Source of the DNA: a virus
Taxonomy: Duplodnaviria > Caudoviricetes
DNA length: 64,000 nucleotides
Virus record (IMG/VR): IMGVR_UViG_3300032219_002227
Location: 64,001 to 128,000 of that record
Strand: one strand, 5' to 3'
The stretch's first letter is position 1; each line of letters starts with the position of its first letter. Positions 7,945 through 12,060 of this stretch are shown piece after piece. The notes beneath the pieces were generated by a model. The model was not told where the DNA came from and ran no database searches. It saw nothing but the letters and a program-made list of their open reading frames with translations. The position numbers and the translations under genes were made by a program.

Positions 7945-8208
7945 ATGAAAGTAAAAGATTTAGTTAAGTATTTAGGAGAATTTGATCCGGAAACAGAGGT
8001 ATTAGGTATGTGTACTGATCCAACAAACTTCACCTACAAATCACCTATTCAATCAATTGAATTTGATAGTCCATTTGATGATAGTGGTTATAGTAGTGTT
8101 GATGGATCAGAATTAGATTGGGATAAACATTATTATGAAGACGAAGATATGGATGAACCAAAATATATTGGTCCAAAAGTTGTTTTATTAAATTTAGGTG
8201 ATGTGTAA
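7945..8208 (+). CDS. Acidic hypothetical protein (MKVKDL... family; start moved to 7945)
   Basis: Upstream extension is translated promoter; similar N-terminus to 10114. Confidence 0.7.
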   Translation: MKVKDLVKYLGEFDPETEVLGMCTDPTNFTYKSPIQSIEFDSPFDDSGYSSVDGSELDWDKHYYEDEDMDEPKYIGPKVVLLNLGDV

Positions 8209-8266
8209 ACATCACTTTTTTTTTGTCACAATATGTTTTGTATATTTAGTTTATAAAATTAAAATT

Positions 8267-8506
8267 ATGAAAAAGCATTACACATCTAAATTAATTGAAA
8301 TTACAAACACCATTTTTTCCGCCACCGATTTTTTATCAGCTAAACATTTACTGACCGAATTTATCGAAGGTACTCAAGTTAAAAGCAAAAATAAAATGTT
8401 GTTTGATGTTAAAAATTTAAGGACGCTTCATCAGGTGCAGCGTTACACTGCAAATGCGCTTTTAAAATTTGAAGGTTTAGGTACAACAGAAACAAAGGCG
8501 GCGTAA
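8267..8506 (+). CDS. Hypothetical early protein (start moved to 8267)
   Basis: ATG after promoter and AAAATTAAAATT leader. Confidence 0.65.
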   Translation: MKKHYTSKLIEITNTIFSATDFLSAKHLLTEFIEGTQVKSKNKMLFDVKNLRTLHQVQRYTANALLKFEGLGTTETKAA

Positions 8507-8555
8507 TAATTTCGTATATTTAATCATTAATAAAAACACAAATAAAAAAAAGGTT

Positions 8556-8795
8556 ATGAACAACACAGAAACAAAATCAAAAGGTCGTCCAGTAGTAGAA
8601 AATTCAGCTCGTCAAATGCGCCTCGCGGCACGCGCCACAAGGGTAGCCGCCGGGGGTGAAGTTAAAAGGGGCCGTCCATCAAACCCAGAATCAGCTCGCC
8701 AACAACGCCTAGCTGTTAGAGCAAGTGGGGTTACGGTTAAAAGAGGTCGCCCGAAAATGGAAAAGCAAGAAGTAGAAGCTACTGTTGAGGCCTGA
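8556..8795 (+). CDS. Small basic protein with AT-hook-like repeats
   Basis: KGRP...SARQMRLA / KRGRP...SARQQRLA / KRGRPK internal repeats. Confidence 0.75.
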   Translation: MNNTETKSKGRPVVENSARQMRLAARATRVAAGGEVKRGRPSNPESARQQRLAVRASGVTVKRGRPKMEKQEVEATVEA

Positions 8796-8849
8796 AAAAT
8801 AAGGTAGGTGGTCAAAAATGATCACCTACCTTTATTTAAATTAAAATGT

Positions 8850-9032
8850 ATGGAAAAAGTTTATAATTACGTTACTGAATTTTTGTTTGGGGTTAGGGTA
8901 GAAGGTGAACCAATTGATATGTCACTTCCTAAACCACAAGATGTATCACCGAATGTTGATCCATTATTTTTTGAATGGTGTGAGGAATTTAAAGTCGGAT
9001 GTCAGTTTAAAAATAAACCTACCTTTTGGTAG
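8850..9032 (+). CDS. Hypothetical early protein (start moved to 8850)
   Basis: ATG after stem-loop promoter 8801-8834. Confidence 0.6.
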   Translation: MEKVYNYVTEFLFGVRVEGEPIDMSLPKPQDVSPNVDPLFFEWCEEFKVGCQFKNKPTFW

Positions 9033-9076
9033 GCTAAATTATTTTTTTATATTTAATTAATTAAAAAATTAAAAAT

Positions 9077-9481
9077 ATGGCAACAAGATCTTACATCGGA
9101 ATTAGAAACACAGACGCCTCAGTTGATTACATTTATTGTCACTTTGATGGTTATCCAGAACACAACGGTAAAATTCTTAGGGAACATTACTCAAATATTA
9201 ATCGAGTAAACGAGTTATTGAAATTAGGTGATTTGAGTGTGTTGGGACAATTTATTGGTGAGAAAATGGATTTTGATAAGCGAGTTAGAGATACTTGTCT
9301 GGCGTATGGTAGAGATAGAGGTGAATCGAATGTAGATAAAAAGAATGGTGATTATGATAAGTTGATTACCGATCAAAGTGTTGATTATGTGTATGTGTTT
9401 GATGGTGATTATTGGGAGTGCCACAGCACATGGAACCCAGAACTAATTAATTTATACAATATGGAACAACAAAATAGCTAG
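9077..9481 (+). CDS. Conserved phage hypothetical (TRS.IG...YCHFDGYP...YGRDRGE)
   Basis: Motif pattern recognised from large phages. Confidence 0.75.
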   Translation: MATRSYIGIRNTDASVDYIYCHFDGYPEHNGKILREHYSNINRVNELLKLGDLSVLGQFIGEKMDFDKRVRDTCLAYGRDRGESNVDKKNGDYDKLITDQSVDYVYVFDGDYWECHSTWNPELINLYNMEQQNS

Positions 9482-9507
9482 TCATACTTTTAATTTTTAA
9501 TGGTTAC

Positions 9508-9536
9508 GCCTGGGGTTTCTACCCCGGGCTTTTTTT
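9508..9536 (+). terminator. Intrinsic terminator just upstream of the C-free cassette
   Basis: GCCTGGGGT-TTCT-ACCCCGGGC then T7. Confidence 0.8.
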
Positions 9537-9582
9537 CATTATGGCCAAAATTAATTGTTTATATTTATATAAATTAAATTAT

Positions 9583-9774
9583 ATGAGAATATTAGATGGT
9601 AAGGAAATATTAGATTTTGAAGGTATATTTATTGAGTTTAATGATGATGGAGTTGGAATGTTTTTGAGTGAGGATAAAAATTTAGATTTTGGTGAGTATG
9701 AGACTTGTGGTGATAGTGGAGAAGTTGAATTAGAGGGAGGAAGAATAATAAAGTGGGGAATATTATATGTTTAA
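9583..9774 (+). CDS. Acidic 63-aa protein; gene has one C
   Basis: Own promoter 9544-9567; no Ala/Pro/Gln/His, one Thr. Confidence 0.7.
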   Translation: MRILDGKEILDFEGIFIEFNDDGVGMFLSEDKNLDFGEYETCGDSGEVELEGGRIIKWGILYV

Positions 9775-9823
9775 TATTTGTTTTATTAGAATTAATTATG
9801 TATATTTATATAAATTAAAATGT

Positions 9824-10060
9824 ATGATTAAAAGTAATTATGATTTGGTTTTAGAAGTAATTAAGAATTATGAAAGTGAAAGAATATTAAATGATTTTAA
9901 GATTATTTTTATTGAGGGTGAGAATATAAGTAAAGAGGATTTTTGGAATTTTAATTATAAGTATATTGATGATATAAGTGAAGAATATTATATAAAATTA
10001 AATTGGAAGTATATTGAAAGTGAAGGTGATGAAAGTATATTTGATGGAGTTATGTTTTAA
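9824..10060 (+). CDS. Acidic 78-aa protein; gene has no C
   Basis: TATATTTA box at 9801-9808; no Ala/Pro/Gln/His/Thr. Confidence 0.7.
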   Translation: MIKSNYDLVLEVIKNYESERILNDFKIIFIEGENISKEDFWNFNYKYIDDISEEYYIKLNWKYIESEGDESIFDGVMF

Positions 10061-10113
10061 ATTAAATTAAATTAGTCGAAATTAATTTATTATATTTATT
10101 AAAATTATAAGTT

Positions 10114-10305
10114 ATGAAGGTAAAAGAATTAATTAGTTTGTTAAGTGAAATGGATAGTGAATTGGATGTATTAGGTGAATTTGATAGTGATGGTGATGGG
10201 TTTATGATTAAGGTAGAAGTAGTAAATGTAGAGGAGGGGGATGGAATTGATGATGTTAATTATAATGATGATAGAAGGTATTGTATTATTAAATTAGATT
10301 GTTAA
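10114..10305 (+). CDS. Acidic 63-aa protein (MKVKEL... family); gene has no C
   Basis: Promoter GTCG-N12-TATATTTA at 10075-10098. Confidence 0.7.
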   Translation: MKVKELISLLSEMDSELDVLGEFDSDGDGFMIKVEVVNVEEGDGIDDVNYNDDRRYCIIKLDC

Positions 10306-10379
10306 ATTAAAATTAATTAAAAAATATATAGGTGGTCAGAAATGATCACCTACATTTATTAAAATTAAAAATTAAAATT

Positions 10380-10544
10380 ATGGAATTGAATTTAAAGGAT
10401 GTAAATGATCTGTATTATGTAGTAGGTAGAATGATGCAGATAAATAAGAAGGATAGGATGTTTATTAGTGATGAGGAATTAGAAGCATTAAGTGAAAAAC
10501 TGGTTGAATTAATTGAGGTAAAATATGAGGAAGAAAATTATTAA
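10380..10544 (+). CDS. Hypothetical early protein (start moved to 10380)
   Basis: ATG after stem-loop promoter; C-poor. Confidence 0.6.
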   Translation: MELNLKDVNDLYYVVGRMMQINKKDRMFISDEELEALSEKLVELIEVKYEEENY

Positions 10545-10601
10545 ATAAACATAGGTGGCCAGGAATGGTCACCTATATTCAACCTATAAAATTAAAACAA
10601 T

Positions 10602-10790
10602 ATGGAACGTACAATCATTAGAACCAAGTATTTAAACGTATCATTAGTGCCAGGTGTATTATTCGGAGTACTGTATGAAGATCAGGAACTAGGTATAGGT
10701 ATAGGGCCAGTAGCACTAACGATTAAATTATTCAATTTCAATCGTAGACGTAAAGTAACTAAATCCAAGTACGATATAGAGGTATTTTAA
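10602..10790 (+). CDS. Hypothetical early protein
   Basis: ORF after stem-loop promoter. Confidence 0.6.
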   Translation: MERTIIRTKYLNVSLVPGVLFGVLYEDQELGIGIGPVALTIKLFNFNRRRKVTKSKYDIEVF

Positions 10791-10861
10791 GGTTAGTAGT
10801 AATAATAAAACGGAGTGGGGCAAGGCCCCATTCATATATTCAACCTATAAAATTAAAACGT

Positions 10862-10984
10862 ATGACAACATTTGACTTATTCATCCAGAAATTTCAGCTC
10901 GGACTTGCTATTGTAGTTTACTTAGGTGTAATGTTATTGTTTATTGATTCAATATTACCTAAAAAGAGAAAAATAATAAAGTAA
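10862..10984 (+). CDS. 40-aa single-TM peptide (not in ORF track)
   Basis: MTTFDLFIQKFQLGLAIVVYLGVMLLFIDSILPKKRKIIK after its own stem-loop promoter. Confidence 0.55.
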   Translation: MTTFDLFIQKFQLGLAIVVYLGVMLLFIDSILPKKRKIIK

Positions 10985-11032
10985 TAGTAGTCAAAATTAA
11001 ACACGTATATTCATCTTATAAAATTAAAACAT

Positions 11033-11329
11033 ATGACAAAGAAACAATTGTTAGAAAAATTGAACAGCTCAGAAGAATTAGTAAAGATTGCTTACGTACC
11101 AGTTTCTGAAGTAATTAATTGGGTAAATGAATTAGATGAAGCCGATACTGAGGTATTTAGTAATTTGGTAAAGGAAATAGCAAGTGAAATTGCAGACCAA
11201 GGTTTGGATTTGATTGAAGATTATGATTTGGAAATGAATTACAGGGAAGTAGAATTATCAACTGTAACGTTAGATGAGGGTAGGATAGAAAGAGCAATTA
11301 AAACAGCAATTAATAATTCCAGAGATTAA
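11033..11329 (+). CDS. Acidic hypothetical protein, paralog of 3058..3414
   Basis: Shared DL.MNY.EV motif. Confidence 0.7.
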   Translation: MTKKQLLEKLNSSEELVKIAYVPVSEVINWVNELDEADTEVFSNLVKEIASEIADQGLDLIEDYDLEMNYREVELSTVTLDEGRIERAIKTAINNSRD

Positions 11330-11400
11330 AATTAATTGCTAAAAATGGATATGGGTGGCCAGAAACGGCCACCTATATTCATGTTATAAAATTAACACGT

Positions 11401-11724
11401 ATGACACAGTTTCAACAAGCATTAATCGCAGCATCAGAAAGTAAGTTAAACACACCAACCGTAGGTACATCAAGCGGTAACGTTGATTATTTTGGTTACC
11501 AGTTAGCGGTACACAAGTACAATTTAGGGATAATGTCTCTAGGGATGAAATGCCGTAGTATCACATTCACCCAAATTAAAAAGTACTATGGATTGACAGG
11601 TAGGACAGCTAAGGAATGCTTACCTCAAATGGAGCAGCTGATGAAACAGTATAAGGTAGCGCTTCAAGGTTACGGTGATGAAAGTATAGTTGAGGTAATG
11701 GATATGAATTCCAGAACCAATTAA
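11401..11724 (+). CDS. Hypothetical early protein
   Basis: ORF after stem-loop promoter. Confidence 0.65.
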   Translation: MTQFQQALIAASESKLNTPTVGTSSGNVDYFGYQLAVHKYNLGIMSLGMKCRSITFTQIKKYYGLTGRTAKECLPQMEQLMKQYKVALQGYGDESIVEVMDMNSRTN

Positions 11725-11783
11725 AACAAAAACGGGGTGGGCGCAAGCCCATCCCTATATTTAACTCAATAAAATAATAATAT

Positions 11784-11921
11784 ATGAATATGGTTAACGA
11801 AATAATGAGCGAAGCAGGGTTAGCGATAATAACCGCGGTAGCGATATTGATGTATGCAATGATCGCCAAGCCGGAAAGTGATATCACGTTTGATGAGATC
11901 GACCGCGCGAAGCGCGGTTGA
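11784..11921 (+). CDS. 45-aa single-TM peptide (not in ORF track)
   Basis: MNMVNEIMSEAGLAIITAVAILMYAMIAKPESDITFDEIDRAKRG after promoter 11740-11763. Confidence 0.5.
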   Translation: MNMVNEIMSEAGLAIITAVAILMYAMIAKPESDITFDEIDRAKRG

Positions 11922-12060
11922 CGAAAGTGCGAGTGATATCGATACGGTATCGATCGATAGCGATCCGATAGCGATATGATAGCGCACTGCTCCCATCCCA
12001 ACCGCGGTCCATCGACGGCCCGGGAGCGGCCCGGTAAAAAAATGACGTATTCTCGACTCG
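11878..12060. repeat. GC/CpG-rich palindrome and short-repeat island
   Basis: Tandem CGAT units, TAGCGAT repeats, CGGCCCGG x2, inverted repeats 11899-11921 and 11938-11954. Confidence 0.75.

Follow-up and report, generated by a model that had tools for sequence, protein, structure and literature searches.

Introduction

In laboratory practice, C-less cassettes are transcribed without cytidine triphosphate (CTP), and the polymerase halts at the first C. Phage biology offers a second point of reference in the small proteins that act at the onset of infection: T7 Ocr, ArdA, and T4 Arn are small acidic anti-restriction DNA mimics, and T4 IPI* is delivered with the DNA. Here, we describe a natural phage locus that shares features with both. 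It lies in a 64,000-nt stretch (the window; positions 64,001 to 128,000 of the IMG/VR record IMGVR_UViG_3300032219_002227), where three small genes (A, B, and C) together with their predicted promoters and spacers occupy a block, 9547–10336 in window coordinates, whose + strand is almost free of cytosine. By analogy, the laboratory C-less cassette appears to be the nearest thing in function, as both consist of a promoter and, downstream of it, a transcribed stretch from which one nucleotide is missing until it first occurs at a defined position; however, the laboratory cassettes (C-less or G-less) are artificial and non-coding, whereas the phage block arose in nature, codes for conserved proteins, and is kept up by selection in phages that have diverged from one another. 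The encoded proteins resemble Ocr, ArdA, Arn, and IPI* in being small, acidic, and variable, but no likeness to them was found in sequence searches or, for the product of gene B, in fold comparisons.

Three published systems are also close to the locus in organization or composition. Promoter-early stem-loop (PeSL) cassettes have been described in the T4-type phages RB49 and phi1 (Arbiol et al. 2010, PMC2839356), where, as here, small ORFans in a hyperplastic region each stand behind a repeated hairpin/promoter cassette. In bacteria with runaway transcription, the need to escape Rho is established as a force that shapes coding-strand composition (Dierksheide et al., Nat Microbiol 2026, PMC13323073). 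This bias shares with the block a selection on the coding strand that includes synonymous sites and amino-acid choice and keeps C below G, in the case of Rho because of what naked nascent RNA would attract, but it disfavours both pyrimidines and is genome-wide and moderate (~54% purine), whereas the bias in the block is all-or-none, affects few genes, and raises T. GRINS (PMC8256042, 2021) likewise consist of coding sequence recoded to intense nucleotide skew with altered amino-acid usage; however, they are repeats within the large polyketide synthase (PKS) genes found in GC-rich bacteria, where they are associated with gene conversion, whereas here whole small genes and their spacers do without one base. 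Moreover, the C-free genes belong to unrelated families and are not repeats of one another, the only repeats being the promoters. The composition of the block is not covered by PeSL, Rho-avoidance bias, GRINS, or restriction-site avoidance. A preliminary description made from the sequence had stated that no such system was known, and our literature search, which returned no description of natural genes or phage genes without cytosine, agreed; conserved natural proteins encoded with three bases, and hence built from 15 amino acids, were not described in the literature searched.

A Coding Tract with Two Cytosines

Base counts of the block gave 311 A, 306 T, 171 G, and 2 C in 790 nt (0.3% C and 21.6% G), in a complete viral genome of 173,246 bp that contains 13.9% C; T increased from 31% in the genome to 39% in the block. 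The two cytosines, at 9704 and 10077 as initially reported, separate C-free runs of 157, 372, and 259 nt. Per-strand counts over the whole genome identified the block as the only such tract in 173 kb: the longest C-free run elsewhere was 83 nt, no other 300-nt window in the genome contained 8 or fewer C, and no comparable tract without A, G, or T was found. Chance is excluded as the origin of the tract. With the amino-acid sequence fixed and the genome's own codon usage as expectation, the 153 codons of genes A to C that have a C-containing synonym should have included 32.5 C-containing codons; none was seen (P ~1e-18). An assembly artefact was excluded as well, since the Logan contigs of run X1, possibly the source sample, showed 0 differences from the block, and independent metagenome assemblies of relatives showed the same trait.

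Genes A to C are intact open reading frames (ORFs), starting at 9583, 9824, and 10114, and encode acidic proteins (isoelectric point, pI, 4.05–4.2), as the preliminary description had stated. C-free messages leave proteins 15 amino acids. The remaining five (Ala, Pro, Gln, His, and Thr) make up 21.8% of the residues encoded by the genome, compared with 1 of the 204 residues of the three proteins, a single Thr encoded by ACT at 9703–9705. When gene D, the C-poor gene that follows the block, is included, the proteins measure 54–78 aa with a pI of 4.05–4.4, and use 14–16 residue types.

The edges of the tract are informative. On the left, the last C ahead of the block (9545–9546) lies inside the upstream element of the first predicted promoter (P1); on the right, the first C past the block (10337) lies inside a conserved hairpin, 32 nt downstream of the gene C stop codon. 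In L001, a related locus described below, the first C past the block lies ~12 nt behind the last stop codon. These positions indicated that the C-free stretch coincides with the stretch expected to be transcribed.

Selection against Individual Cytosines

The non-coding spacers within the blocks of the window and of the related loci L001 and L003 contained 1 C in 740 nt, compared with 102 expected from ordinary spacers of the same region (13.8% C). Because the spacers are purged too, explanations based on transfer RNA (tRNA), codon, or protein composition alone were ruled out, and with them the suggestion made at the outset that the genes evade the loss of particular tRNAs. We then compared orthologous C-free genes (16 pairs, 3,580 aligned nt, ~20% divergence), which differed by 320 A<>G, 234 A<>T, and 137 G<>T changes, while only 13 differences involved C; ordinary genes of the same phages showed 95 C<>T per 135 A<>G changes. 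Similarly, none of the 24 listed in-block differences among strain variants of the lake created a C, the uncovered parts of the block in runs X3 and X4 being left out of this comparison. The C that remains in partly purged genes is mostly in Thr codons and is preceded by A in 55% of cases. Thus, we concluded that C is tolerated only where the protein needs the residue, a cost per C being traded against protein function, and that purifying selection keeps C out site by site, at synonymous positions and in spacers alike. Since both synonymous sites and spacers are purged, the target must be the message or its template strand, and not the protein or codon usage.

A mutational origin through strand-specific C-to-T hypermutation, or an escape from restriction through loss of G/C-containing palindromes, would account for two properties of the block, namely that T is up by 7 points and that a single TCGA is the only G/C-containing palindrome left, but we regard this as a most improbable account. 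G and A are raised as well as T, and adjacent genes keep normal C<>T turnover while the C-free state lasts over the divergence given above. Compared with ordinary relatives, Pro was replaced by Ser (AGT), Gly, or Asn, Gln by Leu, Glu, or Lys, and Thr by Lys, Glu, or Leu. In the gene B family, in particular, the residues of the ordinary clade correspond in the C-free forms to Ser (AGT), Gly, Asn, Ile, Val, or Lys (for Pro), to Lys, Asp, Glu, or Leu (for Gln), to Glu, Gly, Leu, Met, or Lys (for Thr), and to Leu (for Ala). An origin by APOBEC-like deamination was therefore rejected: the ORFs are intact, although CAA, CAG, and CGA would turn into stops under C-to-T change, most replacements are not C-to-T products, and the state is stable. 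The MDSE motif of gene C, where the paralogue at 7945 has FDPE, was as first described, and the codon, ortholog, and replacement data agree with the earlier proposal that the tract results from selection and not from C-to-T decay. Escape from restriction sites, which had also been proposed, is weak. Ordinary sites are present in the remaining 172 kb, palindromes of A and T alone are plentiful in the block, a relative (L019) carries the trait on a lone 246-nt gene, and on the circular map no part is known to enter first.

A site-by-site, transcript-wide purge that includes spacers would also fit an escape from an RNA enzyme that attacks C. Such an enzyme could be an endoribonuclease acting on C or on C-containing motifs (from toxin-antitoxin or abortive-infection systems, CRISPR collateral activity, or the phage's own host shutoff), or a cytidine modifier or editor. 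Most known mRNA interferases recognize C-containing motifs, and ACA-less messages escape MazF in the laboratory. Nevertheless, we consider this explanation quite unlikely: a motif-specific enzyme would spare other contexts, yet all C contexts are purged. ACA was the commonest trinucleotide of the remaining C (31% compared with 15% in ordinary genes), which disfavours ACA-type enzymes and, with them, part of the RNase evasion considered in the preliminary description. In addition, the contrast in gene content between genomes with and without the trait contained no candidate nuclease.

Distribution of the C-Free Genes

We fetched the corresponding loci of relatives through a conserved 134-aa gene located just upstream of the block. 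C-free blocks with different gene content were found at the syntenic locus in L001, L003, and L012. L001 and L002 carry C-free runs of 1,665 and 293 nt with one C between them (a 1,959-nt block), L003 carries 1,475 nt, and L012 carries 828 nt; L001, L002, and L003 are closely related to one another and so are not independent samples. The blocks of the relatives hold other families, and at least ten small, mostly acidic families are encoded without C. The trait may also cover a single gene, as in L019, in which the gene B homologue has 0 C in 246 nt and its neighbours have 11–13% C. Several homologues keep 3–14 C. In L001, a 32-codon ORF for a hydrophobic peptide (L001:6931-7029) carries the only C of the 1,959-nt block, in a Thr codon (ACT).

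Four complete relatives (G001, G002, G003, and G005) were compared with the genome containing the window (G000). In a gene census, G000 has four genes below 3% C, the next lowest being at 5.4%, a bimodal distribution that marks them as a class of their own and not as the far end of a bias; G005 has five genes at 2.5–5% C; and G001, G002, and G003 have none below 6%. Thus, three of the four complete relatives are without the trait, and G001 and G003 contain no C-free run of 124 nt or more. These results showed that the trait is gene- or cassette-wise and patchy, and that it travels with the genes between phages. They also showed that codon choice and the protein alphabet alike can be overridden, across at least ten families, by selection acting on a message or on its template. 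In at least two families, the C-free state is derived from ordinary 20-letter ancestors. A near-C-free gene with ordinary neighbours was observed in the cultured Flavobacterium phage immuto (vB_FspM_immuto, which grows on Flavobacterium sp. LMO8; immuto26A_128; MW353175.1 68330-68686; L039:18330-18686), which encodes 118 aa with 5 C in 357 nt and makes this phage a ready test system.

The distribution bears on the possibility that the G-free template strand is the point, either because the phage DNA contains 7-deazaguanine (preQ0-type) or because the host attacks guanine, for example by ADP-ribosylation; in both situations, a template lacking G would remain readable for an unadapted polymerase. 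The genome encodes QueC, QueD, FolE, a phosphoribosyltransferase (PRTase), a GT2 enzyme, and a conserved 270-aa ORF adjoining QueC, as well as a packaged-looking ADP-ribosyltransferase. The 7-deazaguanine locus and its extras, including a dCTP-deaminase-like gene, extend over G000:C1:5468-12239 (QueC, 122.9 bits; PTPS/QueD; GTP cyclohydrolase I), and the Pfam model of tRNA-guanine transglycosylase (TGT) did not match the 270-aa ORF, which is thus only a putative insertase. However, QueC and the 270-aa ORF occur in all four complete relatives and PRTase in two of them, while G001 and G003 lack any C-free gene; across the five complete genomes, neither the 7-deazaguanine genes nor the dCTP-deaminase-like gene tracked the C-free genes. 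Furthermore, ~98% of the phage genes are read off G-containing templates, and 7-deaza purines, whose Watson-Crick face is intact, usually pose little difficulty to polymerases. The guanine-modification alternative of the preliminary description has genuine footing in the presence of these genes, but the trait does not follow them, and we hold this explanation to be improbable.

The Encoded Proteins

That the proteins are small and acidic, as originally noted, was confirmed, but the gene C paralogue of ordinary composition at 7945 is as acidic as the C-free genes, which means that acidity is not special to them. Searches of proteins A to D against Pfam and PHROG gave nothing significant, and tblastn of genes B and C against GenBank phages returned no match. 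The single Thr of gene A that requires C is conserved in all four homologues. The motif ETCGDSG (window 9700–9720) is kept in all homologues of gene A; its GDSG recalls that of serine hydrolases, but the protein has only 63 residues and no family match.

The gene B family comprises 46 homologue clusters, down to 58% identity, each with 0–3 Ala, Pro, Gln, His, or Thr residues. The protein was modelled as a five-helix bundle (pLDDT 91.6) built from 14 residue types; C-free genes thus offer a natural experiment in reduced-alphabet folding, for example in this predicted bundle. Comparison of the model with the PDB gave no significant match (Foldseek E >4; VIA Z <=5.0), and the only match in BFVD, VIA-wide, and the ESM Atlas was an uncharacterised homologue. 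A well-supported sister clade has ordinary composition (6–11% C) and contains Ala, Pro, Thr, and Gln. These ordinary relatives are longer, at 119–211 aa (L026:4860-5219, L030:4944-5399, L031:1111-1746, and L033:4833-5222), and carry N-terminal extensions with either the spacing of the phage's MIKLxDILKE-type tags or an RMQKLAGI motif. In T4, the prohead protease cleaves capsid-targeting tags behind (L/I)-x-E, and Alt is packaged. An ART-PolyVal ADP-ribosyltransferase of the present phage (G000:C1:4514-4900), which recalls Alt, starts with MIKLIDLLKE, a tag common to several proteins of the structural region. The tag-like N-terminal extensions of the ordinary gene B relatives resemble the N-terminal capsid targeting of T4 internal proteins. 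Some phages may therefore inject the B domain ready-made as capsid cargo, and others may express it from a C-free gene. A reading of the N-termini of the gene B and gene C products as capsid tags was considered but dropped; in gene B, the stretch is helix 1 of the fold.

The gene C family has 23 clusters, 16 of which are without any Ala, Pro, Gln, His, or Thr, and a sub-clade of C-type proteins still has FDPE, Gln, and Thr. The gene C model was poor (pLDDT 62).

CTP-Independent Transcription as a Possible Cause

Selection acts against every C throughout whole units, but in only a few genes, which points to a cost attached to each C of the message or to each G of the template. A site-by-site purge is best fitted by independence from CTP, or by resistance to 3'-deoxy-3',4'-didehydro-CTP (ddhCTP). 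Thus, we tentatively propose CTP-independent transcription of proteins needed at once as the preferred mechanism, which on the sequences compared here is possible rather than probable. Each C in a message would be one CTP-requiring step, and a message without C could be completed under CTP scarcity or under poisoning by a chain terminator, such as the ddhCTP that prokaryotic viperins produce. Not until the first C would RNA polymerase stop, and in these blocks this C follows the last stop codon. A variable assortment of small acidic proteins would in this way have their synthesis guaranteed or sped up at the start of infection, and the proteins encoded without C would probably be anti-defence or take-over factors. 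Under no reading other than CTP-independence does a single C carry much weight or the position of the first C make sense, and the capsid-tag-like extensions of the ordinary gene B relatives are a hint that such proteins are needed at time zero.

Several observations weigh against CTP-independent transcription. No viperin, CTP-depleting system, or C-directed function turned up in an analysis in which no search aimed at them could be made, and the gene-content contrast of G000 and G005 with G001 to G003 gave no C-related candidate. All other phage genes need C, so that the small proteins would have to restore the situation or act beforehand, and at least ten unrelated families make that a strong demand. 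The independence is also not absolute: gene A needs one C, and gene D and several homologues retain 3–14. The promoters in the block do not differ in type from those of ordinary neighbours, which means that the genes are not marked as earlier, and three complete relatives manage without such genes. No RNA run was listed among the holders of the stretch. Finally, the clade is nearly one-stranded, so that effects of the coding strand and of the genome strand are confounded and cannot be distinguished in it.

Rho loads onto C-rich, G-poor naked RNA, and lagging ribosomes are likely in Bacteroidota, which lack Shine-Dalgarno sequences. The block could therefore be the extreme of Rho avoidance: a C-free message with raised G would not be bound by Rho, and long hairpin-free units would be completed even though ribosomes lag. 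In agreement with this, YC dinucleotides occur at 0.13 per 100 nt in the block compared with 4.8–6.2, G is raised, and the antisense strand of the block would make an ideal Rho target. The blocks are hairpin-free units of 0.8–2 kb, and ordinary neighbours are bracketed by hairpin-promoter cassettes. However, when we applied the published metric, positive C-over-G skew in 150-nt windows (PMC13323073), the maximum CG skew of the block was -0.92, and several ordinary neighbouring stretches (10–12% C) already scored zero, so that a full purge adds nothing by this measure. Moreover, T, the second feature that favours Rho, is up to 39–45% in the block, TC is not avoided among the remaining C, and C content is bimodal and not graded. 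We regard Rho avoidance as unlikely, ranking it second after CTP-independent transcription.

To an explanation by message structure we give little credence. Without G-C pairs, the RNA would stay open, start of translation without a Shine-Dalgarno sequence would be easier, and no internal terminator or processing hairpins would form. The predicted folding energies of genes A to C (-0.08 to -0.11 kcal/mol per nt) were indeed weaker than those of 14 neighbouring genes (-0.13 to -0.25), at roughly half their size, and the blocks lack internal hairpin cassettes. Nevertheless, one extra C barely alters folding, such that a near-total exclusion of C seems out of proportion, and ordinary neighbours with the same promoter and leader manage without a C purge. 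If either Rho or RNA structure were the cause, the block would mark the extreme limit of known composition constraints.

Returning to CTP-independent transcription, we further propose, as a more speculative and rather unlikely extension based on the same comparisons, that C-free messages could serve as a chassis for counter-defence. Changing first-strike proteins would still be made when immunity removes or poisons the CTP pool, by ddhCTP or another CTP-directed system, and the same domains would be delivered by the capsid in other lineages. If CTP independence or a C-directed attack is the cause, the trait would represent a new axis of the phage-host arms race, and the C-free signature would then be a simple finder for first-strike anti-defence genes in uncultured phages.

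Promoters, Hairpins, and Gene Shuffling

Nearly every small gene at 4.9–14 kb of the window is preceded by a box, TATATT(T/C)A(A/T/G), and by a leader rich in A and T (type TAAAATTAAAA) that ends 2–3 nt ahead of the ATG. As the box TATATTTAT was found upstream of late genes too, the box alone cannot date genes as early or late. Immediately 5' of the box, ordinary neighbours carry a G+C-rich hairpin. One hairpin (GGTGGTCAGAAATGATCACC and variants) occurs in four copies before a box (8801–8832, 10329–10352, 10552–10575, and 11352–11375), and the stem changes among the copies are compensatory (GTCA/TGAT, GCCA/TGGT, and GCCA/CGGC), which indicated that the hairpin is a conserved structure. In contrast, no hairpin cassette was found inside any of the C-free blocks inspected, including that of L001. 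The strong terminator reported upstream of the block was recovered (stem 9508–9529 plus a T-run), and the C-free upstream element of the middle promoter and the C at 10077 in the element of the third promoter were as claimed.

In the study's sister samples, contigs connect 9536 with 10080, 9820 with 10079, or 10046 with 10326, or replace the intervening stretch (window 9536–10347). Accordingly, strains co-occurring in the lake lack A and B, B, or C, with joints at the repeated promoters. The block had been described as a three-gene cassette; the three genes stand, but they are part of a variable set, from which single genes have been lost or replaced in strains of the same lake. As in PeSL, genes between cassettes are deleted or replaced by recombination, and block content differs among the window, L001, L003, and L012. 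PeSL, however, are a vehicle of shuffling and not of composition, and the in-block promoters here are without the stem-loop, since a stem-loop cannot form without C. Judged from these arrangements, the shuffling vehicle of the block appears to be PeSL-like, in a Bacteroidota-type T4-like phage.

R-loops are favoured by G-rich non-template strands, and the joints in sister contigs show that the region is recombination-active in the population. The block might on these grounds have a role at the DNA level, as an R-loop-prone replication origin comparable to oriF and oriG of T4, or as a recombination hotspot of the kind proposed for GRINS. We consider such a role very improbable. The trait follows families into other contexts and may cover one 246-nt gene, three complete relatives are without it, and an R-loop does not require zero C; in addition, the repeated promoters and hairpins, present beside ordinary genes as well, account for the shuffling.

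Features of the Locus and of the Genome

The features of the block and its surroundings are listed in table 1.

Table 1. Features in and around the C-free block (window coordinates)
Feature	Position	Strand	Description	Basis or comparison
Gene C paralogue	7945..8208	+	Ordinary composition (9.8% C); has P, T, Q, and H	Comparison gene
Intrinsic terminator	9508..9536 (stem 9508-9529)	+	9-bp G+C-rich stem and T-run; left boundary, closes upstream unit	Terminator search
Putative promoter P1	9543..9582	+	Upstream element GGCCAAAATTAAT; box TATATTTAT at 9560-9568; leader ATAAATTAAATTAT	Architecture of neighbouring small genes; function inferred
Gene A	9583..9774	+	63 aa; pI 4.05; single C (Thr codon 9703-9705)	
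Predicted promoter P2	9787..9823	+	C-free upstream element TTAGAATTAAT; box TATATTTAT at 9801-9809	Same form recurs in L001 block
Gene B	9824..10060	+	78 aa; 0 C	Five-helix bundle model; family of 46 clusters
Predicted promoter P3	10073..10113	+	Upstream element TTAGTCGAAATTAAT (C at 10077); box TATATTTAT at 10091-10099	
Gene C	10114..10305	+	63 aa; 0 C	C-free derivative of widespread family
Hairpin and promoter box	10329..10359	+	PeSL-like; right boundary; first C at 10337	4 genome copies
Gene D	10380..10544	+	54 aa; C-poor (4 C in 165 nt)	Homologues in L001, L003, and L012 fully C-free

The genome has a 58-bp terminal repeat, which is an assembly overlap and gives a circular genome map. The phage is a distant T4-type myovirus of fresh water, presumably with Flavobacterium-type hosts. 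It encodes the T4-type markers Gp23 capsid protein, Gp20 portal, a T4-type terminase, and a gp21-type prohead protease, and its closest cultured relative is Flavobacterium phage immuto (60% portal identity). Megablast of window positions 8000–12000 against GenBank phages returned no match. In T4-type phages, early and late genes are usually opposite in direction, and a one-strand layout is unusual; here, ~98% of the ORFs of the genome lie on the + strand. A share of 95–98% of ORFs on one strand was observed in all five complete genomes (G000 and the G001–G005 set). Outside the window, ARAGORN predicted a tRNA-Leu(TAA) (G000:C1:55806-55893) and a tmRNA-like gene with the tag AEELSSFTFEDAMSFVGADYAVAA (G000:C1:56545-56929).

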